From Desulfocapsa sulfexigens DSM 10523 (GTDB lineage Bacteria; Desulfobacterota; Desulfobulbia; Desulfobulbales; Desulfocapsaceae), in contig NC_020304.1 of assembly GCF_000341395.1 (NCBI RefSeq), positions 3,930,001-3,962,000 on the forward strand: a DNA stretch of 32,000 bases, read 5' to 3'. Below, piece after piece: positions 558 to 20,770 of this stretch. Within the stretch, counting starts at the first letter, position 1. The number at the start of each line of letters is the position of its first letter. The position numbers were made by a program, and so were the translations under genes. The notes beneath the pieces are model-generated. The model ran no database searches. It was given only the letters and a program-made list of their open reading frames with translations, and had not been told where the DNA came from.

Positions 558-2153
558 ATGATTGTGACATTTTGTGCCATCTTAGGATTGTCACCAAAAA
601 TTCGTTCAAACATCAGTACGCTGGTGTTGTGTTTAAGTACACTGTGGCTGACAGGATTATTACTTCCAACTCCTGCCCATACAACATCCATCCGTCTTCA
701 TGAGATCAAGACGACAGATTCTTTTACCACCAGCAGCCTTTCACTACCGAGAACTATAACTACAAAAGAAACAGAAGACCAGGCAACAACTGAATTTTTC
801 AGCCCCGGTTCAACACGTTCCGAGCCCGATATTCTCAAGGTATATAAAGCACTGTTCAAGCAAACCTGGGAACAATCACCTGATATTCAGGTTGCCAGGA
901 AAATGAAACAACAGAAAGCAGCAGAGCAATACACCGCCTGGGCCAACAGAATTTCCCCACAACTCGATTTTGAAATTGCTCAGAAACGTTTCCTGAACAA
1001 AGACCTAGCCGACGACACCATACAGACCAGCCTTGAAGAAGAAGTCCCATACACTGACGGAAAGGATATAACAGACTGGAATTTTGATCTGGATATTCCT
1101 CTCTACCGCCGTCCCCTTTCACTGGCTATTGATGTATCACGGATAGAATACGAGCTCGCAGCCAATAATCTTGAAATTAAAACCCGTGAACTTGATGCCC
1201 GGCTCCATGAATTGCTTGGGAACTACATGGTTGCCTCCTACAACCTGCATAATCTCGAAAACTCCATTTTTATTTCCGGTGAACATGTTAACAAAATTCA
1301 GCGTGGTTACGATTTACGGGACCAGACCAAACTGGCCCTACTGAGAGCTCAGGCGAACCTGAAGGAACTTGAAGCCAGAAGAGACCTCAACGGACAGAGA
1401 CGTGACACCACATTTCGGGAGCTTCTCGATTTCACTGCTATCCCCGAGAATGACCCCACTTGGCACTGGCTAAAAGAACTTCTTAACAGTGAACAACGTA
1501 CAGCAGGCTGTATTAACAGCTTTTCAGCATTACAGACAGGCACTGAAAAGATGCAGCCATTTCTGACTGAAGCATTAACGGAGGCGGAGCTACGTGATTT
1601 TTTTGTAAACAACAGCCTGCTCTATAAAAAGATTCTCCTCGAACGTAATCTCGGCAAAATCAAAGCAAAAAAATATACGCAACAGGAATGGCCGGCACTC
1701 TTCGTACGAGGAGAGTTTGACAGAAAAGCAGACACGCAGTTTAACGACTACAACGGTGAGGGCTCCATTGGCCTGGTTCTAAGCGTACCACTCTTCAGTG
1801 GCGGAACAATATTCAGTAATATCAAAACAGAAACTATGGCTTCCGATATTACTTCCATAGAAGAACATTCAACTATTTTAAGAACCTTCAATTCCATTGC
1901 CAATAAGAAAAAAACAATTTCCAGCTTACGCGATATATATGAAAAACAGCAAATCCACCTGCAGCAGCAGCAGGAGATTGTACGACTATCCCTCAAGTCC
2001 TACCAGATCAAGCAGACTTCCATGCAGGATCTCCTCACCAGTAAAAACCGCCTGATTGACGCAAAAAACCTTCTTATGCAAACCACCACTGATCTGGGTG
2101 TTCTACTTCGACAATTTGCCTGGGAACTGGGTACACCCTTCCCTGCTCCATAG
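558..2153 (+). CDS. TolC-family outer-membrane efflux/secretion channel protein
   Basis: 531-aa ORF with an ATG start and a hydrophobic N-terminus (LVLCLSTLWLTGLLLP). It has two coiled-coil-rich halves with OEP/TolC-type motifs (ALLRAQANLKELEARRD; LVLSVPLFSGGTIFSN; DLLTSKNRLIDAKNLLMQTTTDL). Confidence 0.75.
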   Translation: MIVTFCAILGLSPKIRSNISTLVLCLSTLWLTGLLLPTPAHTTSIRLHEIKTTDSFTTSSLSLPRTITTKETEDQATTEFFSPGSTRSEPDILKVYKALFKQTWEQSPDIQVARKMKQQKAAEQYTAWANRISPQLDFEIAQKRFLNKDLADDTIQTSLEEEVPYTDGKDITDWNFDLDIPLYRRPLSLAIDVSRIEYELAANNLEIKTRELDARLHELLGNYMVASYNLHNLENSIFISGEHVNKIQRGYDLRDQTKLALLRAQANLKELEARRDLNGQRRDTTFRELLDFTAIPENDPTWHWLKELLNSEQRTAGCINSFSALQTGTEKMQPFLTEALTEAELRDFFVNNSLLYKKILLERNLGKIKAKKYTQQEWPALFVRGEFDRKADTQFNDYNGEGSIGLVLSVPLFSGGTIFSNIKTETMASDITSIEEHSTILRTFNSIANKKKTISSLRDIYEKQQIHLQQQQEIVRLSLKSYQIKQTSMQDLLTSKNRLIDAKNLLMQTTTDLGVLLRQFAWELGTPFPAP

Positions 2154-2261
2154 AAAAAAACAAATATCGTTATTCTACTACTTCACGCCACCAATTCTTA
2201 AGTCTATACATTCATACAGAAGCGACCTTTAAACTACCCCAAAAGGGCCTGATGAAGCAGA

Positions 2262-2826
2262 GTTTCAATCCACGCCCCCGCATGGAGGGCGACTGGTCGC
2301 TGAGATCAGGATCATCAGAAGTGGCTGTGTTTCAATCCACGCCCCCGCATGGAGGGCGACTGATTAAGGGGTACTTATCAACCAAAAAAAGCATGTTTCA
2401 ATCCACGCCCCCGCATGGAGGGCGACCTATGGATCAATTTCTGTTGGTGTCGAATCCCGTGTTTCAATCCACGCCCCCGCATGGAGGGCGACGCAACTTG
2501 TCTCCTTACGGAAACCTCTAAATCTTGTTTCAATCCACGCCCCCGCATGGAGGGCGACGCAGTAAGCTGCGCTCATCCGGGTGGATTAAAAAAGTTTCAA
2601 TCCACGCCCCCGCATGGAGGGCGACTTTTAAATCACCTCCTGTTCACCCATGTGGCAGGTGTTTCAATCCACGCCCCCGCATGGAGGGCGACGACATCAC
2701 AAGATTCTCCGCTGTCAAGGATCTTACGTTTCAATCCACGCCCCCGCATGGAGGGCGACCACCCCTGACGGAACTCCGATGATATCCCCTGATGGTTTCA
2801 ATCCACGCCCCCGCATGGAGGGCGAC
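2262..2826 (-). CRISPR. Type I-C CRISPR array with 9 repeats and 8 spacers
   Basis: There are nine identical 32-bp repeats, GTTTCAATCCACGCCCCCGCATGGAGGGCGAC as read on the + strand. They start at 2262, 2329, 2395, 2461, 2527, 2594, 2661, 2728 and 2795, and are separated by unique 34-35 bp spacers. The reverse complement GTCGCCCTCCATGCGGGGGCGTGGATTGAAAC ends in ATTGAAAC, as is typical of I-C repeats. The array is therefore transcribed on the minus strand, co-directional with the cas genes. Confidence 0.97.
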
Positions 2827-3010
2827 TGTCAGCCTGCAATACTTCACAGTTACTGATGACAATGTGGCTTTGCTGCGAACTACAACAATTTACAGATCTC
2901 AACAATAAAACCACAAAACACAGTGGCCAATATTCACTAACATTTCAACTAGTAAACATAACCTGCGAACCATTCAGGGTTTTACTGTGCCATTAAGGTT
3001 CGCGACATCG
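2827..3010 (-). promoter_or_regulatory. Putative CRISPR leader, between the cas2 stop and the first (leader-proximal) repeat
   Basis: 184-bp non-coding stretch between cas2 (ends at 3011) and the repeat at 2795-2826. It is on the upstream side of the array given the repeat orientation. It is A/T-rich in its centre (CAACAATAAAACCACAAAACAC) and contains a duplicated CTGCGAAC octamer. No promoter hexamers were confidently identified. Confidence 0.6.
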
Positions 3011-3301
3011 TCAAACTAATAAAATCCCCTCCATATCAATGGCCTTCTTAGCCCCAACATGCTCGACCTTATTGTGCCAATTTGAACCTAAGAAATAAAA
3101 TCTCAGGCTATCAGCCTTTGGGTCAAATTCATCAAGCAATCTTTGTCGCAGCACTGCCCATTGGGCTGGGTCAACTATACATTCAAATACTGAGTATTGT
3201 ACACGCTGCCCGTAATCCTTACACGTCTTGGCTACTCTACGCAATCTCTTTGATCCACCTGAATCACTTGTCTTCACATCATAACTCACCAAAACAAACA
3301 T
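3011..3301 (-). CDS. cas2: CRISPR-associated endoribonuclease Cas2
   Basis: 96 aa. The N-terminus MFVLVSYDV...KRLRRVAKTCKDYGQRVQYSVFEC is the classic Cas2 ferredoxin-fold signature. It is the last gene before the leader and array. Confidence 0.93.
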   Translation of the reverse strand: MFVLVSYDVKTSDSGGSKRLRRVAKTCKDYGQRVQYSVFECIVDPAQWAVLRQRLLDEFDPKADSLRFYFLGSNWHNKVEHVGAKKAIDMEGILLV

Positions 3302-3310
3302 ACGTTTACC

Positions 3311-4339
3311 TCATCTCCAAATCATTGGTGGGTAGCCATCCAGATCACCCCTGAAAAACCGAGCTAGCAACAAGGCCTGGGTATGGAAAAGCAGACCCAC
3401 TGGCATTTTTTCATCCACAAAAGCATGCACCAATACTTCCTGCTTTTTCTTCTGATAAGCTGTTAAAACGATCTTCCTCGTTTCATCATCCATCCGCACC
3501 CCACCGCCATTACTCACTTTAAAGCCTTTTGCCTTTACCTGACCAAGATTTATAAGAGAAAGGACAATCCTATCCACCCAGGGTCGAAACTCTTCCATCA
3601 TGTCAAGAGCCAGCCCAAAGCGCCCTGGACGATCACGATGCAAAAAGCCCACTGCAGGATCAAGGCCTACACACTCCAACGCAGACCGAACATCGTTCAT
3701 CAATATCATGTAGAGAAAAGAAAGTAGACAATTCACAAGATCTAAAGGCGGGCGACGCGACCTCTTCGTGAAATAAAATTCATCCTTCTGCTTTACTATC
3801 ATATGATCCAATACCTGGAAGTAGACATGACCACTATCTCCCTCTACTCCACGAACCATATCTAAATCCAAATCCGCTTTCAAACGTCCCAGTGAATTAT
3901 TCAACCGCCGAATCGCCTCCTGAATAGCCTCACAATCAATCCGTTCACCATGATCTCGAAGGATACGTTTTAAATTATGTCTACAATTTGCTATTTTGGC
4001 AGTCACAAAAGAGGTAGCGATCCTGGCTGAGAAATCCAGATCATCTGCACTTCGATACTGTTGACGACGAAGCAACACATTACCGGATACTGCGCCCTGC
4101 ACCCTGGCCAAGAATTTTCCATACTCAGTCAAAAAACTAAAAGTAATCCCACGCTCGCCACAAAATCCCATTAGAAATGGGCTGGCACCGACATTCCCAA
4201 AGCAGACAATCGACTCCAAAGTATGAATAGGTAGACGAAGACGAATCTCCTTCTCTACTTTCACAACAACAGTTTCACCCTCTTTGGCAAGGTATGCCCC
4301 CTGAGTAGTCACAAAAAGAGTATTCAAGTGCTTTTTCAT
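3311..4339 (-). CDS. cas1: CRISPR-associated endonuclease Cas1, type I-C
   Basis: 342 aa. The sequence LFVTTQGAYLAKEGETVVV...VRGVEGDSGHVYF...ALDMMEEFRP is Cas1-like. Its ATG overlaps the cas4 stop (ATGA at 4336-4339). Confidence 0.95.
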   Translation of the reverse strand: MKKHLNTLFVTTQGAYLAKEGETVVVKVEKEIRLRLPIHTLESIVCFGNVGASPFLMGFCGERGITFSFLTEYGKFLARVQGAVSGNVLLRRQQYRSADDLDFSARIATSFVTAKIANCRHNLKRILRDHGERIDCEAIQEAIRRLNNSLGRLKADLDLDMVRGVEGDSGHVYFQVLDHMIVKQKDEFYFTKRSRRPPLDLVNCLLSFLYMILMNDVRSALECVGLDPAVGFLHRDRPGRFGLALDMMEEFRPWVDRIVLSLINLGQVKAKGFKVSNGGGVRMDDETRKIVLTAYQKKKQEVLVHAFVDEKMPVGLLFHTQALLLARFFRGDLDGYPPMIWR

Positions 4340-4983
4340 TTCAGCATCTTCTCCAGATAGTGGGCCACTTTTTTTCTCTTCGAAAGCACTTTGGGCAGGC
4401 AGAGGGATTCAAAAGAACAACTCTTACATTTATTGCTATATTCAGGTTTTGGGGTTTGTTTTGATGCCAACAATAGATGAAGCCTTTCACTGGTATCCCG
4501 AGTCTTTTGCCGAAGCCTGTTATCAAAGACGACCTCCAAACGACGGTGTGTTGTCCCATAAAACATAGCTCCTTTTTCAATCTCTATCCCCAGCATTTCC
4601 TCTAAGCAAATTGCCTGGGCACAAAGTTGAACCCTATCAGAATCATCCTTTTTTGCTTTCCCCCGTTTATATTCCACTGGAAATGGCTGCCACCCCTTAT
4701 CTATCTTATAAAACTCCACGACATCTGCCCGTCCGGCTATGCCTAATTCCAAAGAATGTAAAGGAAGATCATACTCAATTCTTTTATCTTTACGCGATTC
4801 CCGACCTGCTTTATGCACCCGCTCATGCATGATTCGCCCTTCAGCCGTCAACCTGTTTTCCTCCCAAAGTTGTTCAATATGAATAAGAGCACATTGCCTT
4901 GGACAAAACAGCAGATGCTGAAGAGCTGAAAGCATGTGTAAGTTATCTTCAGTAAACATTTGTGTCATACCATACCACACCAC
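4336..4983 (-). CDS. cas4: CRISPR-associated exonuclease Cas4 (RecB-like nuclease with a 4-Cys cluster)
   Basis: 215 aa from the GTG at 4983; an ATG at 4968 is an alternative start. It has an N-terminal Cys (LLFCPRQCAL) and a C-terminal CKSCSFESLC, giving the Cas4 Fe-S cysteine pattern. A RecB-type core is present (DVVEF...EYKRGK). It sits immediately upstream of cas1. Confidence 0.9.
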   Translation of the reverse strand: MVWYGMTQMFTEDNLHMLSALQHLLFCPRQCALIHIEQLWEENRLTAEGRIMHERVHKAGRESRKDKRIEYDLPLHSLELGIAGRADVVEFYKIDKGWQPFPVEYKRGKAKKDDSDRVQLCAQAICLEEMLGIEIEKGAMFYGTTHRRLEVVFDNRLRQKTRDTSERLHLLLASKQTPKPEYSNKCKSCSFESLCLPKVLSKRKKVAHYLEKMLK

Positions 4984-4998
4984 TGGCCATTCTCATTT

Positions 4999-5988
4999 CT
5001 ACCCTTTCTCGTTTGTGAGTAAATTAATAACAAGACGAATTAGTAAATCTTTTTGAGCTGGGTCGCTTGATGCTATGAGCAGAGTTAATGCCACCAAAGC
5101 CTTATCATCAAAATCCAACACATCACGATTCAACCTGAGAAACAGCAAAAAAAGAAAAGAACCTATACGCTTATTGCCATCAACAAAGGGATGATCCTTA
5201 ATAATGAAATATAGTAAATTAGCTGCTTTCTCTTGCACACTGGGATAGAGATCCTGTCCACCAAACGTCTGCTGAATAGCACCTAAAACCCCAGCCAAAC
5301 CTTCGCCCCGCTCCTGACCAAAGATGCCTGTTGCTTCACTTCTACTCAACAATTCCTGCTTTAAAGAACTGATGGCCGGACGTGCTTGATCAATCTCTAA
5401 CGCTTCAGATAATAGATCCATACTCTTCGGAATTGCCAGAGAAGCCTCGTCATACTGCCAGAGAAGTTGCCATGTTTTGGCATAAGCAGTAACAATAGAA
5501 AGCACTCCTCGCCCTTCGTCATTCACCAGTTTATGGTCTTCCAAAGTATTGGCTAGAAGTCCCAGCATTTGCCTGGCATCATCAAGACCTTTCTCTGCCA
5601 ATCGCTTCTGATTTAAAGTACATCCCTGTACCAGATGTTCTTTCAGGATCGAAGTTGCCCAGATCCTGAACTGTGTACCTCGCTTTGAATTAACTCGATA
5701 GCCAACAGAAATTATGGCATCAAGATTAAACCATTCAATAATTCGTGAGACCTCACGAGTCCCTTCTTGTTGAACTGTTGCATTTTCTGCAACAGTTGCC
5801 TCTCTAACAAGTTCACCACTCTGAAAAATATTACGTAAATGCCTTGAAATCACTGATTTGTCACGTTCAAACAAATCTGAAATCTGGTTCAGTGTTAACC
5901 AGACCGATTCGTCTTTAAGACGTACATCGACTCCAACCTTTCCATCATAAAACTGATAAAGTATCAATTCACCTTGCTCAAAGGTCAT
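4999..5988 (-). CDS. RhuM-family N-terminal domain fused to a Fic/Doc (death-on-curing type) domain, embedded in the cas operon
   Basis: 329 aa from the ATG at 5988, which is preceded by AGGAG (5996-6000) with a 7-nt spacer. The ORF track extends to a TTG at 6018. The N-terminal half, WLTLNQISDLFERDKSVISRHLRNIFQSGEL...NLDAIISVGYRVNSKRGTQFRIWATSILKEHLVQG, is the RhuM-family signature. The C-terminal half carries HPFVDGNKRIG (5167-5193), the Doc variant of the Fic active-site motif. Confidence 0.85.
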   Translation of the reverse strand: MTFEQGELILYQFYDGKVGVDVRLKDESVWLTLNQISDLFERDKSVISRHLRNIFQSGELVREATVAENATVQQEGTREVSRIIEWFNLDAIISVGYRVNSKRGTQFRIWATSILKEHLVQGCTLNQKRLAEKGLDDARQMLGLLANTLEDHKLVNDEGRGVLSIVTAYAKTWQLLWQYDEASLAIPKSMDLLSEALEIDQARPAISSLKQELLSRSEATGIFGQERGEGLAGVLGAIQQTFGGQDLYPSVQEKAANLLYFIIKDHPFVDGNKRIGSFLFLLFLRLNRDVLDFDDKALVALTLLIASSDPAQKDLLIRLVINLLTNEKG

Positions 5989-6069
5989 ACACCTACTCCT
6001 GACATTGTTTTCTTCCAAGGTAATCGTTGCCAGGAAAGACAGACAACGGCTGTTACAACCAACTCACTC

Positions 6070-6936
6070 TCAAACCTCCAATACTGTCACCCCACTTGGC
6101 AAATCACCAGTCACTTCAATATTTGTATAGTCGGAAAAAGCCCTTGCTGGGTTCGCAGGATCTTTTAATCTAGGATTAGCAACCATCTCAAAAAGCTGTT
6201 GAGCGGAGGCGTTCCCAAGGGCAGAATCATGTTTGAAAACTATCAACTTTCTTGTTCCCATTAAACCACGGGCCGCAGAATGATCATGGTCAAACATATC
6301 ACGCAAGGCTTGCCATAACAATTCAAGATCTTCTTCAGAAAATCCAGTTTGACTTGCTAAGTGAGGAGAGATGAAACCATGGGCCCGGTAAAGGCCATAG
6401 GGCACTGTATATTTGCGCCCCATGGTCCTATTATCACCATGTTGTGCCTCAGCCTCTGCCTCTGTAGTCACTGCCATTCTGGTAATCGAATGTTCAGTGG
6501 CAATAATTGGATCAACTGAACGGGAGAAAGTGAGCTGCACAGGTCCTCGAACTTGGCCAGCATTTTTCCCCGTACTCATTACCGCCCCAAAGGTTCTGAT
6601 ATCGTAATAATTTGTACACATCCACTGCCTGGCTGACTCAACTTTTTCAGCAGATTTTTCTTGTTTTTTAACCTCATCAGTTTCATAAGGTTCATCAATA
6701 AGATTGTTAAGAACAGCCTTTTCCTTAATGAAAATATCAAATGGCCTTTTTGCTTCCTTAACCAACTGTACATAGTTTCTAATTTTCCTTTTCAGACACA
6801 CATCAGTAACAAGACCAAAACCCGTTTCAGCATCCATCCGCGGTAAATTTCCAGCATCAGGATCACCATTTGGGTTGCCATCCTGGACATCAAAGAACAA
6901 TACAAAGTCGTAACGATTTTTTATAATTTCAGACAT
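6070..6936 (-). CDS. cas7: Type I-C Cascade backbone subunit Cas7c (Csd2)
   Basis: 288 aa. The N-terminus [28 protein letters not shown] is the Cas7/Csd2 signature. AGGAGAG lies upstream of the ATG at 6936. The gene follows cas8c. Confidence 0.93.
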
Positions 6937-6947
6937 AACTCTCTCCT

Positions 6948-7301
6948 TTATTCTTTATCTTCTTTCTTGGTGAACAGATCTTGACGTTGGTGATAATATC
7001 CCACTGCAAAACGAGCCTGAGCATCAAGGGGCAAGTGGGCTGGAATTTCTACAATACCACTAAATATTTCCCCCAATATGGTCTCAAAATAGACCCCTGC
7101 TCCACCTTTTAATTTGGCAAGATGGTGGTTCTTTAATTTCAGCAATTGTGGGAACACAGAAACAGGCGAACTGGAAGCTGCCCCATAAAACCGCTCGCGA
7201 ATGGTTTCTTTACCCTGTGCCCTCTTCTGAATATTCTCCAACACAGCAAAGAGACGACCCAACCGATAGGCTGGATTCATATTATTTTTATCAAGTGACA
7301 C
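6948..7301 (-). CDS. Candidate internally translated small subunit Cas11c, in frame within the 3' end of cas8c
   Basis: An in-frame GTG at 7299-7301 is preceded by GAGGAG (7308-7313) with a 6-nt spacer, all inside cas8c. It would give a 117-aa product, [22 protein letters not shown]...KEDKE. Internal Cas11 translation from cas8 genes is established for type I-C. The exact start here is an inference. Confidence 0.35.
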
Positions 7302-8912
7302 GGATATCTCCTCATTCTCTATTTTATGATAATAACGATTTCTACGATTGACATACGCCTTCAGAATGGCCGCCCTTATTCGATTAACATGACGCTCGGC
7401 TCGAATTCGTCTCATACATTGCTGAAACAGGGTTACGGGATATGGTTTCCCCTCAAAAATTGCCTGCATAACTGCCCCGGCTAGATTAGGAGGGACATTG
7501 CTAATCTTAAAGTCAAAGGCAGTATGGGATAATAATTTATGGAGTGAGAAGAACTCCTGATCTTTGCCAGAACGAACAATCTCAAGATCATCAAAGTGAT
7601 TCTTAATCTTTTCAGCAAACTTGAGAACCGTACCTTGTGACCAAAATCGTACCGAAATACGGGCAGCATTTGGAGATAGCCCCAACACATAAAAAGGGAT
7701 ATCACTCTCTGCAGCAAGGCTCCCTGTATAGATACTTTCATAAAGGGCTCGCACTGCCTTGATCCCTGCATCAGGATCATCACTATCCTTTGGAGGGTCA
7801 GTAAAAAACAGACTAAAATCATTCTCTATTTGAGTTGCCTTACCTGCCCAAAAGACGGTGGTTGCATCACCAACAAAAATACGATTATTACTAGTTAAAA
7901 GAGTTGATAGAGCTGTGGAATACGCTGCCTGGGCATATTTCCCGACAGGAGCATTAAACCCTTGCTCTTTGCCATAGGAATCATAACCAGAGTTTTTTTG
8001 AAAACTAACCAAACCTGCTGTACTTTTTCCTCCAGCAATAGCAGTTGCAGCATGAAGACGCTGAATAGGCTGTTTTTTCCCGGTGACCAGACAATACGCT
8101 TCACGAGTCTCCGTTTCATCAGGAACTAAGGCCACAGATTTTTGATAGGTTATAACCGCCTCCCGTTCAGCAATGCCCCCGGCATCACCATCAAGGCGAA
8201 AGGTAAGATTGCAGCCATTAATTTCTCGACAACTTGGCCAGGCATCAAAACCCGTAACTTTTTGATATTCAGCTGTTGCATAAAAAGACACAACCGCTGC
8301 AACTCCCTCATCCGCCAACAATTCAGGTGGAAGTGTGTTTATTGTTTTTTTAAAAGTACCAAGCTGTTTATCAGCCATTTCCTTATCTTTCTTATAAGAT
8401 GAAATAACTGTTGAAATCACCTTGGTCTCTTGCAAGTTTTCAGGAAGTCCTAAGAGAATTTTCCGAAATGAGCCAAAGCTCTGTATCGTTTTCTCAGCAT
8501 CGATTTCATATTTTTCACAAAACTGCAAAGCCTTAGCAATACCAGGTTCCAGTCTCTCTTTCTCAGACAGCAAATCAAATTGTTTCCGCACCTGCTTGAT
8601 CGTTTTAGCGGCATCTTTTTTACTTTCTCCTTTGAGGTGCCCCAAAACATAACCAAAATGATCCCACAATAAACATGCTGTTGCCCAAGCGTTCTGTCCA
8701 CTTCTACCCTGAACTTTAGGAAGCAAAAATTTTCTTCCCACCAGCTTTTTGCCATTCATCTGTCTGGTATCCTGCAGGTCTACAACCTTACCGTGCCGAT
8801 CAAGAACAATGACAAAGGGAATTTCTTTCCATGCAAAACCAATGGGCGCAATTTTTGAATTTGGTTCCGCCGCCCTGCGTTCATAATATTCACATAGTGC
8901 CTGCAAGATCAT
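6948..8912 (-). CDS. cas8c: Type I-C large subunit Cas8c (Csd1)
   Basis: 654 aa. It has the N-terminus [13 protein letters not shown] and the C-terminal motif [14 protein letters not shown], both characteristic of Csd1. It lies between cas5c and cas7c, and its ATG overlaps the cas5 stop (ATGA at 8909-8912). Confidence 0.9.
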
Positions 8913-9649
8913 TTGCGCACCTCTTCACTCTGCCAAGCTGGCACATCAATCCGCCCATTCACCATTTCAGGGCGATAAAAAGCAGGGATCGGATTTTCTG
9001 GATTGGTAAAATCCAAATCATAGAGCATAAAACCCAGATCACGATTATCTTGAATGGGCCTGGCCTTCTCCTGGTCTGGACGGTCAACAAGACGGAAAAA
9101 GGCAGAGAACTCACGGCAGCCTAGATATGGCTGGGTAAAGCATTGCCCCTTCCTGGCACGGCGTTCAAACATGGCTAAGTATTTACCGGGATTTTCATCT
9201 TTACCATTCTGCCAGGCATCCAGGCTTTCCTGAATTTGATCCTTTTCGCCATCATCCCAAAGTTGAACGGGGACCTGGCAGGCAATTTTCTTACGTTTAT
9301 CAACAGGTATATACTCAAGCCAGGCATGAATTCGGTAATGAACATCACGCAAAAATAAGCCTGCCCGTTGTTGCCTGTTCGATTCAATAAAGATTTCTTT
9401 TTTACTTCGAGATGCCAACGCCCCAACTTCATTACGGCGCACAGAGATCCAGTTTATAGGGTTTAACACCTCTATTTTTCGAATATGCCAGCGAATTGCT
9501 GGTTTCCAAAAGATTGCCTCAAAAATTGCCCGTGCCGAAGAAGGAGTGATGACATCATAACTGACCCGCTCAACCTTCATCTCTGGCCTAGTGAAGCAAG
9601 CGTAATCCCCCCACACTTCTAAGCAGAATGTTTTTTCATTTTTTCCCAT
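8909..9649 (-). CDS. cas5: Type I-C Cas5c (Cas5d) pre-crRNA endoribonuclease / Cascade subunit
   Basis: The sequence FCLEVWGDYACFTRPEMKVERVSYDVITPSSARAIFEAIFWKP is the Cas5d signature. I prefer the ATG at 9649 (246 aa) because GGAGG lies 8 nt upstream and that start does not overlap cas3. The ORF track's longest form starts at 9688. Confidence 0.9.
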   Translation of the reverse strand: MGKNEKTFCLEVWGDYACFTRPEMKVERVSYDVITPSSARAIFEAIFWKPAIRWHIRKIEVLNPINWISVRRNEVGALASRSKKEIFIESNRQQRAGLFLRDVHYRIHAWLEYIPVDKRKKIACQVPVQLWDDGEKDQIQESLDAWQNGKDENPGKYLAMFERRARKGQCFTQPYLGCREFSAFFRLVDRPDQEKARPIQDNRDLGFMLYDLDFTNPENPIPAFYRPEMVNGRIDVPAWQSEEVRK

Positions 9650-9665
9650 AGGCATTGCCTCCATC

Positions 9666-11939
9666 TTATATAATAATTGCCCCATCATTGGGCTTCATAT
9701 CCAACCCTACAAAGCCCAAGGTTTCATCATAGGCATAATCAACCGCCTGACACCAAATCCCCTGCACCTCTTCCACAACACTATCCTTAATTCCTGCGAA
9801 CTGTCGTTCAGGAATGCTAACCGTGAAGCGTTGCATCTTACGGAACAGCTTACGACTTGGGCCGTATTTTTTTAACTGGCCGATAAGCTGCTGACCACTC
9901 GTCTTGTCGCCAGAATACCAAACCACCACCGCCACCTGATTCTGGTCATCAATAAGTTTAAATTTTTGGGCAGCTGTTCGAAATTGAAATTCTCCGCGAC
10001 CAGCATCCTTAACAAGTAATGACTGCATGTCCTTTTGATCAAAACTGGCAACACCATTGCCATAAAACAATTTAAAATATCGCTGAAAAGTATCGGGCCT
10101 AAGATTTTCACAACCCTCGGGATCACGACGCATAATTTCTGAGCCAGCATCTGCTCCTTTTCGCAAGAATCCTGGAGGAGCAAGCTTAGGTGCTTGAAAA
10201 ACAACCACCTTGCCTTTTATCTTTTCACCATTCTCCTGCAATTCTCCTTCGCGATTACATCGTCCAGCAGCCTGGGCAATGGAATCAAACCCAGCCATGG
10301 CCCGATAAACCACCGGAAAATCAATATCAACACCAGCCTCAACCAGCTGTGTACTTATAACTCGAATAGGTTTTTTATTTTTTAGAGCTGATTTGATCTC
10401 AGCAATTATTTTGCTACGATGCTCACCACATAGATTTGCCGATAGTAGAATAGACTTTTCAGGCATAAGAGCATGAAGATCACGACAATCTTTCCGAGTA
10501 TTAACCACACAAAGAATCTGTGGATAAGTAGCCAGTTCATCGGCTAAACTCTCCCACTGTTCATATTTCCCCGCCTGCTGGACCACAACTCGTTGGAACT
10601 GCTGCCCGAGCCTTTCGGGGTCGTTAATAATTTCTCGAACCTTACTTCGATCTATGCCAGTAAATCTTGCGCTACCCGTACCAATCTCACCCGTTAAGGC
10701 TGGTTGAGTAGCAGTACACAGGACAATGGAGACATTAAAAGAATCAACCAGCCCCTTCATGGTAGTCAAAATTGGCTGAAGATACTCAGGGGGTAACATC
10801 TGGGCTTCGTCACAGATAATGACAGAATTGACGATATTATGCAGTTTTCTACATTTTGTACTTTTAGCAGCAAAGAGGGATTCAAACAGCTGAACATTTG
10901 TCGTTACAATTATAGGCGCGTCCCAATTTTCACTGGCCAACCTTGCCGCAACTGTTTCCTGATCAGGATCAAGACTGGAATGGTGTTCAAGGACATTTAC
11001 TTCACCAAAGATATTTTTGTACTCTTGGGCTGTCTGTTCAATAATTGAGGTATAAGGGATAACAATGATAATACGAGTTTTACCATGCCTAATGGCATGT
11101 TTTAATGCAAAAGCCATCCCTGAAAGGGTTTTTCCTCCGCCAGTTGGCACTGTCAGGCTAAAAAAACCGGGATCAAGTTCTGCCGCATTTTGACAATCCG
11201 CTAAAATTTCCTGCCTTAGAATATTCACCTTTGTCGATTCCGCTCCAGAAACGAGAGAATCCATATATGCATCAAATTTTGTCTTTAACTCGATAATAAA
11301 CTTCTGGGTGCTACGACAAGCATTCTTGTCTTTATCCATAAAGCCTTCAGTATCGAGGTAATCGGCATCAACCAGGCAAGAAAAAAGCATTCGTACCCAT
11401 AGATGAAAGATATCCAAACGTATCCCATCTTTACACGGCAGACTTTGAGGAGAAAGTAAACTATCAGTCCCCTCCTGTAGCCAACTCGCAGATAAAGAAG
11501 GAAGTTTATCCACCTCATCCTTTGTAAGACGGGTACTCAAACAGCCTCCCCCACCTATTTCATTCTGCCAATCCGGTAAGCCAGCATGATGGCCAGCAAT
11601 GAGATACGCAAAAACCCTTCCAGGCCCCTGCAAGTTTTCATTAGCCCAAACAGCACCATGACTTGAATGGTTTGGGCCATGACCAGGAACATTCCTAACA
11701 TAACCGTCACATTCAAATCCTGTTACTTTACGAATATACTCCTGAAACTCTGATGACCCTTTACCAAGATCATGGAGTAATCCTGCCGCCCGCCCCCAAT
11801 CAGAATTAAAGAATGATTTTGAAAAATTACCGGCATACAACGAAACTCCTTGCAAATGCTCTTTAAGGTAATGAGGAGATAATTTCTGTAATTCTTCATC
11901 AAACATGGCGTGGGCAATTTTCATTTCTGAGACACTCAC
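9666..11939 (-). CDS. cas3: Cas3 HD nuclease / SF2 helicase, type I
   Basis: 757 aa. It has an N-terminal HD domain (LLHDLGKGS ... HHAGL), helicase Walker A (VPTGGGKT), a DEAH-like box (ICDEAQ) and a C-terminal helicase lobe (AAGRCNREG). It is the first gene of the operon. The start is uncertain: GTG at 11939 or ATG at 11924. Confidence 0.93.
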   Translation of the reverse strand: MSVSEMKIAHAMFDEELQKLSPHYLKEHLQGVSLYAGNFSKSFFNSDWGRAAGLLHDLGKGSSEFQEYIRKVTGFECDGYVRNVPGHGPNHSSHGAVWANENLQGPGRVFAYLIAGHHAGLPDWQNEIGGGGCLSTRLTKDEVDKLPSLSASWLQEGTDSLLSPQSLPCKDGIRLDIFHLWVRMLFSCLVDADYLDTEGFMDKDKNACRSTQKFIIELKTKFDAYMDSLVSGAESTKVNILRQEILADCQNAAELDPGFFSLTVPTGGGKTLSGMAFALKHAIRHGKTRIIIVIPYTSIIEQTAQEYKNIFGEVNVLEHHSSLDPDQETVAARLASENWDAPIIVTTNVQLFESLFAAKSTKCRKLHNIVNSVIICDEAQMLPPEYLQPILTTMKGLVDSFNVSIVLCTATQPALTGEIGTGSARFTGIDRSKVREIINDPERLGQQFQRVVVQQAGKYEQWESLADELATYPQILCVVNTRKDCRDLHALMPEKSILLSANLCGEHRSKIIAEIKSALKNKKPIRVISTQLVEAGVDIDFPVVYRAMAGFDSIAQAAGRCNREGELQENGEKIKGKVVVFQAPKLAPPGFLRKGADAGSEIMRRDPEGCENLRPDTFQRYFKLFYGNGVASFDQKDMQSLLVKDAGRGEFQFRTAAQKFKLIDDQNQVAVVVWYSGDKTSGQQLIGQLKKYGPSRKLFRKMQRFTVSIPERQFAGIKDSVVEEVQGIWCQAVDYAYDETLGFVGLDMKPNDGAIII

Positions 11940-12010
11940 CTGTGCATTTTACCATTTGCTAAGAGTCTATTCCCTTGTGTCCTATTCATTCATCACCATA
12001 AAACCTTTGG

Positions 12011-12029
12011 GTGCTCACAGAGTGAGCAC
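12011..12029. promoter_or_regulatory. Perfect palindrome GTGCTCAC-N3-GTGAGCAC upstream of cas3. Candidate operator, or a hairpin.
   Basis: The 8-bp arms at 12011-12018 and 12022-12029 are exact reverse complements. A related third half-site follows immediately (GTGAACAG on the minus strand, 12029-12036). The palindrome lies about 72-90 bp upstream of the cas3 start. Confidence 0.3.
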
Positions 12030-12528
12030 TGTTCACTTTTTATTAAAAAAGAATATCTACCTTGCTGTCATTCGTACGCATAAGAATTTTCATCTTATGT
12101 TCAATTCATATAACAATGATTTTAATGTTTTCAACAATTTATTACCAATTTGTTTTCGACAATATCGGTCAACAACTATAATTTAAACCAGGGTTGTCAA
12201 ATCATTATCCTCGTAGAAATTGAAATCATTAACTAGTTGCAACCACAGGAGACTCGCCATGTAAAAATGACGAGATCGCACAAATGTCATTTTTTTTGCT
12301 CAGTTAATAAAAAACGTGGGAACATAGGTTTTAGTCCCTGCCTAAATACTTCCACTCGAACTCTCTATGTTCGCAACCTGCATAGAATAAAACCTCCCGT
12401 GTCAGCATATTTCAAAGTCATAGGTCCAAGGAAATTGCGCGAAAGAAAATCACTTCTTGACAATACAATAACAATAGACAATACCTTAAGATAACAATTC
12501 CCATAAACTCAACCAGGAGATTGAAGCT

Positions 12529-12936
12529 ATGACAGACAGAAGAAATTTTCTTAAAGGTGGAATAATTGCTGCCTCAGCTTTAGTAGTAGGATCGGTAAAT
12601 TTTGCAAGTGCTGCATCTGCGCCCTATACAAATATTGTTTATACGGCTGAAAACCCTGGAAAATGGGACAAAAAGGTGGGAAGTCACCTGCCATCAATTA
12701 CCGTGGAAGGGAGCAAAGTAACCCTTTTCACCAAACATGGCATGGCCGCGAAACATTATATCGTGAGGCATACGCTTGTTCTTGAGGATGGTACGGTTGT
12801 GGGTGGAAAAGTGTTCAGCGGCACTGATCCTGAAGCAAAATCAAGCTTTGAGCTGCCCGCAGGTTACAAAGGAAAAATCTTCGCTACCAGTTTCTGTAAC
12901 CTTCATGATTTCTGGGTTAATGAGGCAACAGTCTAG
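12529..12936 (+). CDS. Tat-signal superoxide-reductase-like (desulfoferrodoxin/neelaredoxin Fe-centre domain) protein
   Basis: 135 aa. AGGAGA lies 8 nt upstream of the ATG. A twin-arginine signal is present (MTDRRNFLKGGIIAASALVVG...ASA). SOR-type ligand spacing is seen: SHLP, KHGMAAKHYI and SFCNLHDFWVNE, the last comparable to the CN(I/L)HGLW of known SORs. Confidence 0.8.
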   Translation: MTDRRNFLKGGIIAASALVVGSVNFASAASAPYTNIVYTAENPGKWDKKVGSHLPSITVEGSKVTLFTKHGMAAKHYIVRHTLVLEDGTVVGGKVFSGTDPEAKSSFELPAGYKGKIFATSFCNLHDFWVNEATV

Positions 12937-14772: not shown

Positions 14773-16296
14773 ATGAGCAAAGAAAATACGCAAATCCTAA
14801 ATCAACGTCGAGAAAAAGCAGATGCCCTGTCCGATCTTGGTGTTAACCTCTATAGCAACGGGTTCAAGCCGGACAACCGGATAAAGGAACTCATTCCAAA
14901 AGGGGAACATCTGGCTGCTGAGACCCTGGATGAAACCAACTATACCTATTCTATTGCCGGCCGCATTATGTCCATGCGCAAATTTGGCAAAGCGGCTTTT
15001 TTCCACCTTGTTGACAGTTCAGGACGTATTCAGGTCTACATCAAGAAAGATGCTCTTGGTGATGAAATTTTTTCCTCTTTCAAAAAATGGGATATTGGCG
15101 ATATTGTCGGAATAGAAGGCAAACTTTTCAAGACCAAAACCGGGGAACTTTCTGTCCTGGCTGACAAACTGGTGATGATTTCCAAGTCCTTGCGTCCCCT
15201 ACCTGAAAAGTTCCATGGTCTCACCGATGTGGAAACACGATACAGGCAACGCTACGTCGATCTGATTGTTACTCCTCAAAGTCGCGAAACATTCAAGAAA
15301 CGTGTGGAGATCGTCCGCCTGATTCGTGAGTTTCTCTCCAATCGTGGCTTTATGGAAGTTGAAACTCCCATGATGCATTCTGTACCAGGTGGTGCTACTG
15401 CCAAACCGTTCAAGACCCATCACAATGCTCTTGACATGGAGCTTTTTCTCCGCATTGCCCCGGAACTCTATTTAAAACGACTTCTCGTTGGTGGCTTTGA
15501 ACGCGTCTTTGAGATTAATAGAAATTTCAGAAATGAAGGACTTTCCACCCGGCATAACCCTGAATTCACCATGCTCGAATTTTATCAGGCCTATGCCACC
15601 TATCACGATCTGATGGAACTCACCGAAGAGATGATTTCCTGGCTTTGTGATGAAGTCAATGACACCATGGAAATTGAATATCAGGGAACCAGAGTCAACC
15701 TTGCCCCTCCCTGGAAACGTATGACCATGGATGAAGCCCTCACCGAAGTAGCTGGAATTGATGCAGCCGATCTTGCCGATGACGAAAAGGTGCTCAGTCT
15801 TGCCAGAGAAAAAGGCATCCAGCTCGAAGAACAGGCTGGACCGGGAAAAGCAAAAACCGAACTTTTTGAACTCCTTGTTGAAGAAAAACTTATTGATCCG
15901 ACATTTATCACTGCCTATCCGACCGAAGTATCGCCACTCGCAAGAAGAAATGAAGAAAACCCCGACGTCACTGACCGCTTTGAGCTCTTTGTCACCGGCC
16001 GGGAACTGGCCAATGCCTTCAGCGAGTTGAATGATCCGATAGATCAGCGGCAGCGCTTTCAGAAACAGATCGATGAGAAAGGGAATGATGACGAAATCCA
16101 TTCGGTTCTCGATGAAGACTTTGTCCGCGCCCTTGAGTATGGTATGCCATCGGCCGCTGGAGAAGGTATCGGCATTGACCGACTGGTGATGCTCCTCACT
16201 GATTCCCCATCAATTCGTGACGTTATCCTCTTCCCACATTTAAAACCAGAAGTTCCAAAAGAGCAAAAAAAGAAAAAGAAGAAAAAAAGTGTTTGA
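14773..16296 (+). CDS. lysS: Lysine--tRNA ligase, class II
   Basis: 507 aa. It has an OB-fold N-domain, class II motifs (FMEVETPMMH; RNEGLSTRHNPEFTMLEFY; GEGIGIDRLVMLLT) and an unusual C-terminal KKKKKKK tail. Confidence 0.95.
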   Translation: MSKENTQILNQRREKADALSDLGVNLYSNGFKPDNRIKELIPKGEHLAAETLDETNYTYSIAGRIMSMRKFGKAAFFHLVDSSGRIQVYIKKDALGDEIFSSFKKWDIGDIVGIEGKLFKTKTGELSVLADKLVMISKSLRPLPEKFHGLTDVETRYRQRYVDLIVTPQSRETFKKRVEIVRLIREFLSNRGFMEVETPMMHSVPGGATAKPFKTHHNALDMELFLRIAPELYLKRLLVGGFERVFEINRNFRNEGLSTRHNPEFTMLEFYQAYATYHDLMELTEEMISWLCDEVNDTMEIEYQGTRVNLAPPWKRMTMDEALTEVAGIDAADLADDEKVLSLAREKGIQLEEQAGPGKAKTELFELLVEEKLIDPTFITAYPTEVSPLARRNEENPDVTDRFELFVTGRELANAFSELNDPIDQRQRFQKQIDEKGNDDEIHSVLDEDFVRALEYGMPSAAGEGIGIDRLVMLLTDSPSIRDVILFPHLKPEVPKEQKKKKKKKSV

Positions 16297-18295: not shown

Positions 18296-20770
18296 TTACT
18301 CACTTTTCTCCAAAAACCTCCGATGAGCCAGCATCATTTGTATCTGGCTGTACGAAAAATCATCTCCAAGCTGTGATTTTATAGCTTTCAGGGTATCATC
18401 TTCAGCTGCTGCTATCCCTGCTGCAATACGCTTCTGCAAATCAGGCGAAAGCAAAGTATCAACGGACAGTTTCCCAGTTTGAACAAAAAAACAGAGATGT
18501 TTCTCTATTGTACTGGGGGCAAGCCCCCGCTCCCCTGCAATATCCTTAACACTTTTTCCAGCAGTAAACATTTCCAGGCTGATATCTCTGGTAGATTCTT
18601 TTCGAGATTCCATCGTTTTTGGCTTATTTGCTTCAGGCTCTGGCAATGACACTGTCTCAATATTTTCTTTTTCTCGATAGGTACGAACAAGGGTTACAAT
18701 GTCATCGCCGTAATTTTCGACGGTCTTTTTTCCAACACCTGGAATTGCCAGTAATTCTTTCAGACTCTGGGGCAGACAGACCACAATCTGAATTAACACC
18801 CGCTGATACAGAACCTGAAATCTGGCCACATCAAGTTCCGTCGCCTTTGCGGTACGCCAATCGCGGAGAATGTCAAAGAGTTCAGGATGTTCAATGTCAG
18901 ATTCGGTGTAGGTTGCAGCCTGCTGCTTTTTCACCGTCAAGGGTTGGAAATCTATTTCTGCGACAGACACTGCCCGCAGATATCCCGATGGTGAAAAACC
19001 GTTTTCACAGGATTTCATTCCTGCAGATTTTACCACTATCTCTTTTCTGCAGTTATTAAGAACATTACTAATTTTTTTCCGCAGTTCTTTGTTATCCGTT
19101 TCAAAATGCAGGCTTTGCACGGAGCCATCAAATATGGCAGAAAACTTCTCCTGAAACCAGTAAGATGCCTTTTTAATCCGATCCAGAATGTGTTTGTCGG
19201 TCTCCGGCAGGTTATTGTCTTTGAAAATAGTCCAGAGCTGATTCCTGAAATTTTCACTCACTGAAAAAATGGATTCCCGAGCCTGCTGTTCAATAAGCGT
19301 CAAGTCACCTGTACCCGAAAGCTGGATCACTCTTGCATTGCGCTTCAGCAAGTGGACAAGATAGCCAAGATGTTTTGCCAGCAGGGTAAAATCAAAACAT
19401 TCGTAGAGAAGTTTTTGCTGATAGCTGATTTTTGCCTCGTGAAGGATTCTCTCAGATGGCGGATTGCTGCGACACAGTTTGTCAAACTGCAATACCACAC
19501 GATCCGTAGCCACCCCACTTGTACTGATAGGTGAACTGAGGACCAACCCTTCCAGCGTTTTACAGCGACTGAGCGCTACATACACCTGCCCATGGGCAAA
19601 GGCTCCCTGAGCATCAATAATTGCCCGCTCAAAGGTAAGCCCCTGACTCTTATGAATAGTGATGGCCCAGGCAAGTTTCAAGGGATACTGATCGAACCTT
19701 CCGACAACTTCCTCTTCTATCTCCTTATTCGCCTCATTTATTGTATATTTGATATTTTCCCAGCTGACCGGCTCCACTTCAACCTCTTCAGCATCTCCCG
19801 GACACAGCACAAATATTGTCTTCCCGATAATGGCAGTAATCTTTCCAATTTTTCCATTATAGTACTCTTTTTCAGGAGACGGGTCATTACGGACAAACAT
19901 GACCTGGGCCCCTTTTTTCAGGGTCAGTTGTGGCAGTGTTGGGTAAATATGTTCAGGGAAATCTCCAGAGATAGCCGCAGTAAACGAATATTTCTTTCCA
20001 CCAAGCTCCCGTAATCGTGTCTGGTTAATTGATTCCGCACTGGCATTATGGGTGGTAAGGGTAATATATCCCTGATCTTCCGAAGGGATAAAATCACTTA
20101 TAAAGCGCTCATTCAAAGCATTAATAGTAGGCGGATCGAGTCTGTTTTCCCGCACACTATTCAGGATGCTGATAAAGTTTTCATCGGATTGTCTGTAGAT
20201 ATGTTTGAGCTCGATAGTGAGCAACTCCGTCTGCGACAGGGCCTTACTGGAAAAGAAATAGACCGATTCATAATATTTCTGCAGAAGATTCCACTCATGC
20301 TGTTTTGCGACGGGTGACAACTGATGCAGATCACCAATCATCAGCAGTTGCACCCCTCCAAATGGCTGTTCACTGTGACGATGACGGCGCAAGGCGGCAT
20401 CCACTGCATCGAGCAAATCAGCCCGTACCATACTGATTTCATCGATCACCAGCAGATCTAGACTCTGTATGATCTTCTTTTTTTCCTTGGAAAAACGAAA
20501 CTGACGCTGACTGTTTCGTTCGTATGAATCACTACCGGGGATATAGGGACCAAAGGGGAGCTGAAAAAATGAGTGCAGGGTTACTCCGCCGGCATTCATT
20601 GCCGCCACGCCGGTGGGAGCTGTAATGATCATCCGCTTGGGGGTCTGTTCCTGAAGGCCATGAAGAAAGGTAGTTTTACCGGTTCCCGCCTTTCCCGTCA
20701 GAAAAAGAGTACTGCCGGTATACTGAACGAAATCACTTGCCAGCTGCAGTTGGTGGTTGATGGGAGACAT
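18296..20770 (-). CDS. PIF1/RecD-like SF1B DNA helicase with C-terminal HhH/HRDC-like and HTH regions
   Basis: 824 aa. It has Walker A (TGKAGTGKTT), Walker B (LVIDEISM), PIF1-type motifs (LLMIGDLHQLSPV; ITIHKSQGLTF; YVALSRC), a C-terminal IPGVGKKT hairpin and an HTH-like tail (VKDIAGERGLAPSTIEKHL). Confidence 0.85.
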   Translation of the reverse strand: MSPINHQLQLASDFVQYTGSTLFLTGKAGTGKTTFLHGLQEQTPKRMIITAPTGVAAMNAGGVTLHSFFQLPFGPYIPGSDSYERNSQRQFRFSKEKKKIIQSLDLLVIDEISMVRADLLDAVDAALRRHRHSEQPFGGVQLLMIGDLHQLSPVAKQHEWNLLQKYYESVYFFSSKALSQTELLTIELKHIYRQSDENFISILNSVRENRLDPPTINALNERFISDFIPSEDQGYITLTTHNASAESINQTRLRELGGKKYSFTAAISGDFPEHIYPTLPQLTLKKGAQVMFVRNDPSPEKEYYNGKIGKITAIIGKTIFVLCPGDAEEVEVEPVSWENIKYTINEANKEIEEEVVGRFDQYPLKLAWAITIHKSQGLTFERAIIDAQGAFAHGQVYVALSRCKTLEGLVLSSPISTSGVATDRVVLQFDKLCRSNPPSERILHEAKISYQQKLLYECFDFTLLAKHLGYLVHLLKRNARVIQLSGTGDLTLIEQQARESIFSVSENFRNQLWTIFKDNNLPETDKHILDRIKKASYWFQEKFSAIFDGSVQSLHFETDNKELRKKISNVLNNCRKEIVVKSAGMKSCENGFSPSGYLRAVSVAEIDFQPLTVKKQQAATYTESDIEHPELFDILRDWRTAKATELDVARFQVLYQRVLIQIVVCLPQSLKELLAIPGVGKKTVENYGDDIVTLVRTYREKENIETVSLPEPEANKPKTMESRKESTRDISLEMFTAGKSVKDIAGERGLAPSTIEKHLCFFVQTGKLSVDTLLSPDLQKRIAAGIAAAEDDTLKAIKSQLGDDFSYSQIQMMLAHRRFLEKSE

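Follow-up and report, generated by a model that had tools for sequence, protein, structure and literature searches.

The 32,000-nucleotide (nt) stretch of Desulfocapsa sulfexigens DSM 10523 analysed here (contig NC_020304.1, positions 3,930,001 to 3,962,000; hereafter the window) carries a complete type I-C CRISPR-Cas system on its minus strand. Its operon contains an eighth gene, outside the canonical I-C set of cas3-cas5-cas8c-cas7-cas4-cas1-cas2, which separates the interference module from the adaptation module (Table 1). The encoded protein joins an N-terminal RhuM module to a C-terminal Doc-type Fic domain and is referred to below as RhuM/Fic; it is 100% identical to P0001 and bears the NCBI name 'Fic/DOC family protein'. 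A first-pass annotation, made from the letters of the sequence, had placed an extra same-strand gene between cas7 and cas4, and the operon order obtained from Pfam matches agrees with this placement. The annotation had also credited the gene with its own AGGAG Shine-Dalgarno sequence, which lies 7 nt before the start codon, and with the only sizeable gaps in the operon, which is likewise the case. The gap on the cas7 side measures 81 nt, and the distance from the RhuM/Fic stop codon to cas4 is 15 nt with GTG 4983 as the cas4 start codon and 30 nt with ATG 4968, whereas the remaining cas junctions overlap or span at most 11 nt.

Table 1. Coordinates of the type I-C operon, of the parts of its RhuM/Fic gene and of Bro-N/Ant-like genes at related loci (aa, amino acids; positions in the window count from its first letter, other positions are those of the named locus)
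Feature	Locus	Positions	Strand	Remarks
cas3	window	9666-11939	minus	interference module 6070-11939; Pfam match
cas5	window	8909-9688	minus	interference module; Pfam match
cas8c	window	6948-8912	minus	interference module; Pfam match
cas7	window	6070-6936	minus	interference module; Pfam match
cas7-RhuM/Fic spacer	window	5989-6069	minus	81 nt
Shine-Dalgarno AGGAG of RhuM/Fic gene	window	5996-6000	minus	7 nt 5' of ATG 5988
RhuM/Fic gene (RhuM-N/Doc-type Fic)	window	4999-5988	minus	ATG 5988; 329 aa plus stop
N-terminal RhuM-N domain, ~residues 1-121	window	5626-5988	minus	β-hairpins and helix-turn-helix; Bro-N/KilA-N/antirepressor-like fold; predicted nucleic-acid binding
Helical linker, ~residues 122-198	window	5395-5625	minus	AF2 helices 126-151 and 157-180; pLDDT 45-76
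Doc-type Fic domain, ~residues 199-325	window	5014-5394	minus	Pfam, PHROG, PDB sequence and Foldseek matches
Catalytic motif H266-PFVDGNKR-R274	window	5167-5193	minus	HPFVDGNKR, Doc variant
cas4	window	4336-4983	minus	adaptation module 3011-4983; Pfam match
cas1	window	3311-4339	minus	adaptation module; Pfam match
cas2	window	3011-3301	minus	adaptation module; Pfam match
CRISPR array	window	2262-2826	minus	9 identical 32-nt type I-C repeats (GTCGCCCTCCATGCGGGGGCGTGGATTGAAAC, minus strand), 8 spacers
Bro-N/Ant-like gene	L001	9214-10011		
Bro-N/Ant-like gene	L170	7156-7992		
Bro-N/Ant-like gene, frameshifted	L013	9045-9936		
Bro-N/Ant-like gene, remnants	L178	7142-7596		

A scan for promoters and terminators returns promoter counts at or near chance level and, in the gap between cas7 and RhuM/Fic, only one weak hairpin (6047-6061); it speaks neither for nor against an internal promoter. 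In the composition profile, the guanine-plus-cytosine (GC) content of the gene is the same as that of the adjoining cas genes and thus gives no sign of recent acquisition.

Profile searches recover both of the domains that had been proposed for the protein. Pfam Virulence_RhuM (PF13310) matches residues 64-133 with an E value of 1.4e-23 (83.9 bits against a cut-off of 33.7), and Pfam Fic (PF02661) matches residues 207-284 with an E value of 4.2e-13 (50.4 bits against a cut-off of 24). The description of the N-terminal half as RhuM, however, stands only in part. The match covers positions 1-70 of the 252 in the profile, which implies that the N-terminal module of RhuM (known from Salmonella SPI-3) is present and that the rest is absent, its C-terminal ~180 positions being replaced by the helical linker and the Doc domain. 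Over its full length, the protein matches the PADLOC model PDC-S23 (E 4.2e-123; residues 6-325 against profile positions 4-328 of 331), and many PADLOC PDC-S05 (RhuM) models match residues 1-135. In Foldseek comparisons, 17 BFVD matches with E values of at most 1e-3 relate the N-terminal domain to Bro-N, KilA-N, 'repressor domain' and Ant-like antirepressor proteins. This resemblance agrees with a secondary structure of β-hairpin, helix-turn-helix and β-hairpin and with weak HTH_5 and HTH_38 matches at residues 31-54.

The C-terminal domain matches the PHROG 'Doc-like toxin' family (E 6.5e-18, residues 210-316), and the PDB sequence matches of the protein are to the Doc proteins 9vzc (E 3e-5) and 3k33. 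Its nearest solved fold in Foldseek is that of phage P1 Doc (3k33_A and 3dd7_A), with a probability of 1.00, a target TM-score of 0.70-0.74 and a root-mean-square deviation of 3.0-3.2 Å. The AlphaFold (AF2) model was computed from a diverse 133-sequence alignment and has a mean predicted local distance difference test (pLDDT) score of 75.8, rising above 90 over most of residues 200-325 and lying at 78-90 for residues 30-70. It replaces an earlier model from 109 close homologues, which reached a pLDDT of 60 and for which a PDB fold search was meaningless. The linker between the two domains has no family match in Pfam and is modelled with low confidence.

The HPFVDGNKR motif singled out in the first-pass annotation is found at the positions given there, corresponds to residues 266-274 and conforms to the Fic core motif HxFx(D/E)GN(G/K)R. 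Three alignments spanning 42-85% identity show no variation at D270, G271, N272, K273 and R274 and little or none at H266. The hallmarks of Doc are present: K273 replaces the second Gly of the motif, and the trailing xxR is missing (GNKRIGS, with no Arg at +3). In P1 Doc, the same substitution of Lys for Gly confers kinase activity towards EF-Tu in place of AMPylation, and the C-terminal domain is accordingly classed as a Doc-type Fic domain with predicted protein kinase, rather than AMP-transferase, activity. In class I-III Fic proteins, an inhibitory motif (S/T)xxxE(G/N) sits on an α-helix that blocks ATP binding. T71-VQQ-E75-G76 (5761-5778) fits this pattern, probably by coincidence; it falls in a predicted β-hairpin turn of the N-terminal domain, and its Glu is exchanged for Asp in many relatives.

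All CRISPR-embedded copies of the gene belong to a single clade (bootstrap 95.5%, neighbour-joining), whose members come mostly from Desulfobulbales, with the taxonomy of metagenome-assembled genomes taken as deposited. The possibility that homologues essentially never recur inside cas loci, which the first-pass annotation had raised, is contradicted by the neighbourhood survey. Type I CRISPR-Cas loci house 18 of the 22 sampled lineages of the clade (14 of subtype I-C, three of I-E and one of I-G), the other four comprising one decayed locus (L011, with RhuM/Fic and a cas4 remnant followed by housekeeping genes) and three standalone copies (L173, L181 and L183). The position within the operon is equally recurrent. 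In 17 of the 18 CRISPR lineages, the gene occupies the junction between effector and adaptation modules, 5' of cas4 or cas1; the exception is the I-C locus L092, where it lies between cas4 and cas1 and overlaps cas1 by 4 nt.

Among the I-C loci, the order cas7-RhuM/Fic-cas4 is common to the window and the syntenic loci L001-L009, which hold its closest homologues (84-85% identity), to loci with 56-68% identity (L010, L012, L013, L014, L021, L026 and L087) and to L175, L180 and L185. In the I-E loci (L170-172, L176-177 and L178-179; 72-77% identity), RhuM/Fic lies between cas6e and cas1, and its stop codon overlaps the start of cas1. The I-G locus L016 reads WYL-HIRAN-cas3-...-GSU0053-GSU0054, RhuM/Fic, a cas4-cas1 fusion, cas2 and the array, with a 4-nt overlap between RhuM/Fic and cas4-cas1. 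An overlap of the stop codon with the start of cas1 or cas4-cas1 is thus seen in L016, L092, L170, L176 and L178. The association, first noted for I-C, is therefore not specific to that subtype, the same clade being found at the effector/adaptation junctions of I-E and I-G systems as well. The I-E copies are monophyletic (bootstrap 96.5%) and sister to the I-C group of the window (100%), and this nesting indicates that the history of the gene crosses subtype boundaries. Of the 119 closest database proteins that could be placed in a larger tree (≥300 aa), 118 fall within the CRISPR clade. RhuM/Fic resides with cas genes down to ~56% protein identity. The gaps around the gene had been read as the mark of an acquired insert; with this depth of co-residence and a GC content like that of the cas genes, such an acquisition stands for deep time and not for the recent past.

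The ratio of nonsynonymous to synonymous substitution (dN/dS) of RhuM/Fic is 0.09-0.11, compared with 0.11-0.16 for cas4 and 0.04-0.07 for cas1, and the catalytic motif is intact in all members. The arrays at the CRISPR loci of the clade hold 4-72 repeats, so the systems themselves look alive. A one-off neutral insertion is ruled out by the recurrence at the junction, a dN/dS near 0.1 and the intact motif. RhuM/Fic is, in operational terms, a CRISPR accessory gene: within one clade, it is recurrent, conserved in position, present across subtypes and under selection.

The two sides of the junction differ. Downstream, the distance to cas4 or cas1 ranges from -4 to +38 nt in all CRISPR lineages other than L013, where an open reading frame (ORF) of 220 aa (10953-11615) that overlaps the RhuM/Fic stop and has no Pfam or PHROG match intervenes before cas4. 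Upstream, the spacing varies from 15 to ~160 nt, or the place is taken by a Bro-N/Ant-like gene. This gene encodes 255-278 aa, often precedes and overlaps RhuM/Fic, and matches phrog_15286 over its full length (E 6e-81). Intact copies are found in L001, L002, L004-L009 and L170-172; L013 has a frameshifted copy, L178 has remnants, and the window has none. The gene may be a dispensable partner or modulator of RhuM/Fic. Where relatives have an upstream gene, it is Bro-N/Ant-like and not PhdYeFM. A separate insert is found in L092, where a gene for a 291-aa HEAT-repeat protein (6121-6996) lies between cas7 and cas4.

Genes for WYL-WCX regulators precede cas3 in L016 (336-1813), L175 (314-1733) and L180 (1353-2327), and in two of these loci they are accompanied by a further gene, with a HIRAN domain in L016 and an ORF6N domain in L175; no WYL-WCX-type regulator is found upstream of cas3 in the window. 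In L170 (1-10208; also L171 and L172), a truncated I-E block (cas5e and cas6e) comes directly after I-F csy1-4 and an I-F array of 37 repeats, and it leads into the Bro-N gene, RhuM/Fic and I-E cas1-cas2. L170 may therefore be a hybrid, with an I-E adaptation module beside an I-F effector.

Comparisons between loci reveal how much has been exchanged around the gene. Between the window and L001, identity is high for the desulfoferrodoxin-like gene (Dfx, 84%), RhuM/Fic (85%), cas4 (75%), cas1 (87%) and cas2 (91%), whereas the effector genes cas3, cas5, cas8c and cas7 are only 41-61% identical. The effector module is therefore a divergent replacement, joined at a breakpoint that lies between cas7 and RhuM/Fic. 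In L003 (8349-12087), cas3, cas5 and cas8c have been lost, and RhuM/Fic-cas4-cas1-cas2 is intact. The cas7 of L003 is short and divergent (234 aa, ~30-35% identical to that of the window), and VapC/PIN toxin-antitoxin pairs flank this remnant locus on both sides. In L012, a 102-aa ORF (318-626) upstream of RhuM/Fic is matched by a local cas4 hidden Markov model (HMM), in addition to the full-length cas4 on the downstream side. The ORF can only tentatively be called a cas4 fragment, because it has no Pfam match and overlaps part of the end of cas7; a genuine fragment would be a recombination scar left by an incoming RhuM/Fic-cas4-cas1-cas2 block.

Exchange of an entire system is seen in L176 (1038-10199; also L177), where a complete I-E system occupies the chromosomal site held by the I-C system in the window (558-12936). 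The flanks of the two loci correspond, with 80% identity for Dfx and 76% for an OEP-like outer-membrane gene. RhuM/Fic, at 72% identity, is the sole operon gene that the L176 I-E and window I-C systems have in common. The pair gives a natural instance of one whole subtype replacing another at a single hotspot.

Beyond the CRISPR-embedded clade, the RhuM/Fic/DOC family is large. More than 8,000 database clusters match the protein at E values of at most 1e-10, and in a scan of one genome per species, relatives number at least 594 and are spread over almost every bacterial phylum. Full-length copies occur on 16 plasmids, yet in 1 of 50,697 phage records. Among non-redundant sampled loci from genomes and metagenomes, 30 of 160 adjoin HsdM, HsdS or HsdR genes of type I restriction-modification (R-M) systems. 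Recurrence in R-M operons had been noted in the first-pass annotation, and the family has been described as a passenger there (Anantharaman et al. 2013, PMC3710099). Most often the gene immediately precedes hsdR or separates hsdM from hsdS, and relatives of 42-60% identity are found in the hsdS/hsdR gap as well as in the hsdM/hsdS gap. Neighbour genes were classified with local HMMs and pooled Pfam scans, since BLAST alone overlooked many R-M genes. Other neighbours of sampled relatives include SIR2, AbiEii, HEPN, McrBC, MmeI, Tn3, integrases and housekeeping genes. Outside the CRISPR clade, no sampled relative adjoins I-C-type cas genes or a CRISPR array detectable by the screens; one such relative has Cas_Cmr3 (type III-B) as its upstream neighbour (pooled Pfam scan, alignment A2).

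We propose, with a probability of roughly 0.5, that the CRISPR-embedded clade is a stable accessory gene of type I loci that encodes a phage-triggered, translation-arresting Doc kinase and is probably co-expressed with the adaptation genes. Before infection, the protein would be kept inactive by its linker and N-terminal part. The Bro-N/KilA-N-like domain may then sense foreign DNA or a phage protein, upon which the Doc domain would phosphorylate a translation factor, putatively EF-Tu by analogy with P1 Doc. Such phosphorylation would lead to growth arrest or abortive infection, either backing up the CRISPR response or buying time for it. Nesting in a defence operon, with presumed co-transcription, would confer co-regulation and co-transfer.

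Several observations weigh against this proposal. P1-type Doc is not recognized by every model, NCBIfam DOC_P1 (TIGR01550) being missed narrowly (36.2 against 38.65 bits, residues 252-310), and no gene for a Phd-like antitoxin adjoins RhuM/Fic, which has cas7 and the 81-nt gap upstream. The standalone copies in L173 (Electrothrix), L181 and L183 are nested inside the CRISPR clade, and these three members imply that the protein needs no Cas partners. PDC-S23, the PADLOC family to which the protein belongs, is a predicted defence candidate of unconfirmed activity (bioRxiv 10.1101/2024.01.29.577857), and the literature yielded no experimental test of the RhuM/Fic/DOC family. The clade is represented by 22 lineages, its trees are neighbour-joining trees, and many of the neighbour genes come from our own ORF calls. 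Linkage to the adaptation genes, finally, is uneven over time. Pairwise identities of RhuM/Fic correlate with those of cas4, cas1 and cas2 in a Mantel test (r 0.65-0.71, p ≤ 0.002) and not with those of effector genes (r ≤ 0), but r falls to a non-significant 0.1-0.3 without L001 and L003, so that the signal is driven mainly by the trio of the window, L001 and L003. L010 and L026 provide a counter-example, with 79-85% identity in cas4, cas1 and cas2 and only 60% in RhuM/Fic. Together, the drop in r and this pair mean that adaptation-side linkage is established for recent history and by position and not for deep time, and no long-term strict linkage is claimed.

A possible alternative to the accessory kinase, though a less probable one, is that the gene is a hitch-hiking passenger. 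It would work on its own, as a defence gene or a selfish toxin gene that is functionally unconnected with CRISPR, at the only point of a tightly coupled operon that tolerates inserts, and would spread as a homology arm when CRISPR modules recombine. The family's habit of nesting at R-M module boundaries (hsdS/hsdR and hsdM/hsdS) and in unrelated defence islands fits this account, as do the standalone copies within the CRISPR clade and the unrelated inserts at the effector/adaptation junction, namely the HEAT-repeat gene of L092, the 220-aa ORF of L013 and the Bro-N genes. 'Guilt-by-embedding' is, moreover, a general phenomenon, and the PADLOC PDC candidates themselves go back to genes nested within BREX, DISARM and type I R-M operons (bioRxiv 10.1101/2024.01.29.577857). 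A mere passenger is harder to reconcile with a gene that has stayed at the junction through replacement of both flanking modules, in three subtypes and beside unrelated Cas1 lineages. Its start/stop overlap with cas1 in several loci, its retention beside cas4-cas1-cas2 after effector loss in L003 and a purifying selection that matches that on cas4 also weigh against a passenger. How closely the gene is tied to adaptation is a separate matter. Adjacency to cas4/cas1 in three subtypes suggests a partnership, and the occurrence of the family in R-M operons and alone weakens it. That RhuM/Fic is a dedicated accessory of the adaptation module, a Doc-type kinase co-translated with Cas4/Cas1 that would sense invading DNA and whose induction of translational arrest or dormancy, or phosphorylation of a Cas or host factor, would promote or gate spacer acquisition, is doubtful. 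A looser formulation, in which it would act with Cas4, Cas1 and Cas2 by arresting translation or growth to allow spacer acquisition ahead of a phage victory, by phosphorylating a Cas or host factor required for spacer capture or, through its N-terminal domain, as a DNA-binding regulator of the adaptation genes, we regard as unlikely. It would account for a gene that is directly 5' of the first adaptation gene, or inside the module in L092, with a variable upstream side; for the recent breakpoint upstream of RhuM/Fic in the comparison of the window with L001; and for its retention with cas1 and cas2 in L003 and L170 despite truncated effector modules. Close relatives live without adaptation genes, however, the co-divergence with cas1 and cas4 does not reach significance at depth, and the adaptation genes of L010 and L026 have remained far more alike than their RhuM/Fic genes.

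The first-pass annotation had further suggested an addiction module that protects the locus, on the model of CreTA. CreTA is a Cascade-repressed RNA pair that guards type I-B systems, in which the antitoxin mimics a CRISPR repeat; the RhuM/Fic locus resembles it in having a toxic element inside a type I cas operon. P1 Doc is a classic post-segregational killer, and RhuM/Fic is the one constant element amid swapped surroundings, as would be expected of a Doc-type toxin that makes loss of the cas operon lethal. None of the defining features of CreTA is nonetheless present, and a guard of this kind is very improbable. RhuM/Fic is a protein, and it has neither an adjoining antitoxin gene nor a PhdYeFM neighbour. 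Across 2900-12600, there is no Rfam match and no degenerate CRISPR-repeat (creA-like) element; a search for degenerate repeats found none of at least 19/32 near RhuM/Fic, and the lone match in the region, at 10259 within cas3, is at chance level. A single fused polypeptide without processing, moreover, cannot provide the differential stability of toxin and antitoxin. Loss of cas genes is evidently tolerated, as L003, devoid of cas3, cas5 and cas8, and L011, devoid of nearly all cas genes, keep an intact toxin gene. Such cas-depleted loci contradict the addiction reading, because their formation is what a guard should prevent.

Comparison with known systems helps to place the accessory gene proposed here. 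Like P1 Doc of the Phd/Doc pair (PF02661, TIGR01550), the window protein has a Doc fold over its C-terminal ~130 residues and an HxFxD(G/A)NKR motif. It differs in being ~23% identical, in having ~200 extra N-terminal residues and in lacking a Phd gene, and it is encoded in a cas operon rather than in a prophage or plasmid maintenance module, with an activity that is here predicted. The R-M-embedded RhuM/Fic/DOC proteins (PDC-S23) have the same full-length architecture and likewise represent a toxin-like gene at the module boundary of a defence operon. In the present case, however, the host operon is type I CRISPR-Cas rather than R-M, BREX or DISARM, and the copies form a clade of their own. 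The nearest published precedent for a RhuM-type gene in a CRISPR locus comes from the II-C system of Bacteroides fragilis, in which RhuM-domain ORFs lie between cas1 and cas9 and the family is noted as usually clustering with type I R-M (PMC5704556). That arrangement is similar in nesting a RhuM-family gene beside cas1 in a CRISPR-Cas operon, but it concerns a class 2 system in another phylum, with no Fic/Doc domain described and no conservation analysis reported (PMC5704556). A literature search of incomplete coverage did not find the RhuM/Fic family described as a conserved resident of I-C, I-E or I-G operons. What is new is thus that a known candidate toxin family, embedded in a defence operon, has specialised in the junction of CRISPR interference and adaptation genes.

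Elsewhere in the window, positions 18296-20770 (minus strand) encode a PIF1-like helicase of 824 aa that contains HRDC and HTH_40 domains. Two class II aminoacyl-tRNA synthetases are encoded at 14773-16296 and at 29928-31346, and further genes specify a MacB/FtsX-type ABC transporter, a hybrid histidine kinase and histidinol dehydrogenase. With housekeeping genes making up the remainder, the CRISPR-Cas locus does not lie within a large defence island.

Two old questions are how cells coordinate CRISPR immunity with growth arrest or abortive infection and what part accessory genes play at the boundary between interference and adaptation. RhuM/Fic offers a compact, single-gene candidate for such coordination, with a recognisable catalytic motif (H266) and a position kept through exchanges of modules and subtypes; as the sole element common to I-C and I-E systems at one site, it also bears on the shuffling of CRISPR modules. 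If the protein acts alone, 'guilt-by-embedding' would extend from R-M, BREX and DISARM to CRISPR-Cas, which would support the view that PDC-S23 is a genuine defence gene. Joint action with the adaptation genes would make Doc-type phosphorylation a new enzymatic activity in CRISPR biology. And if it is dedicated to adaptation, RhuM/Fic would be the first enzyme of the Fic/Doc kind to take part in CRISPR immunity and would provide a concrete instance of the coupling between adaptive immunity and dormancy or suicide that has long been proposed.

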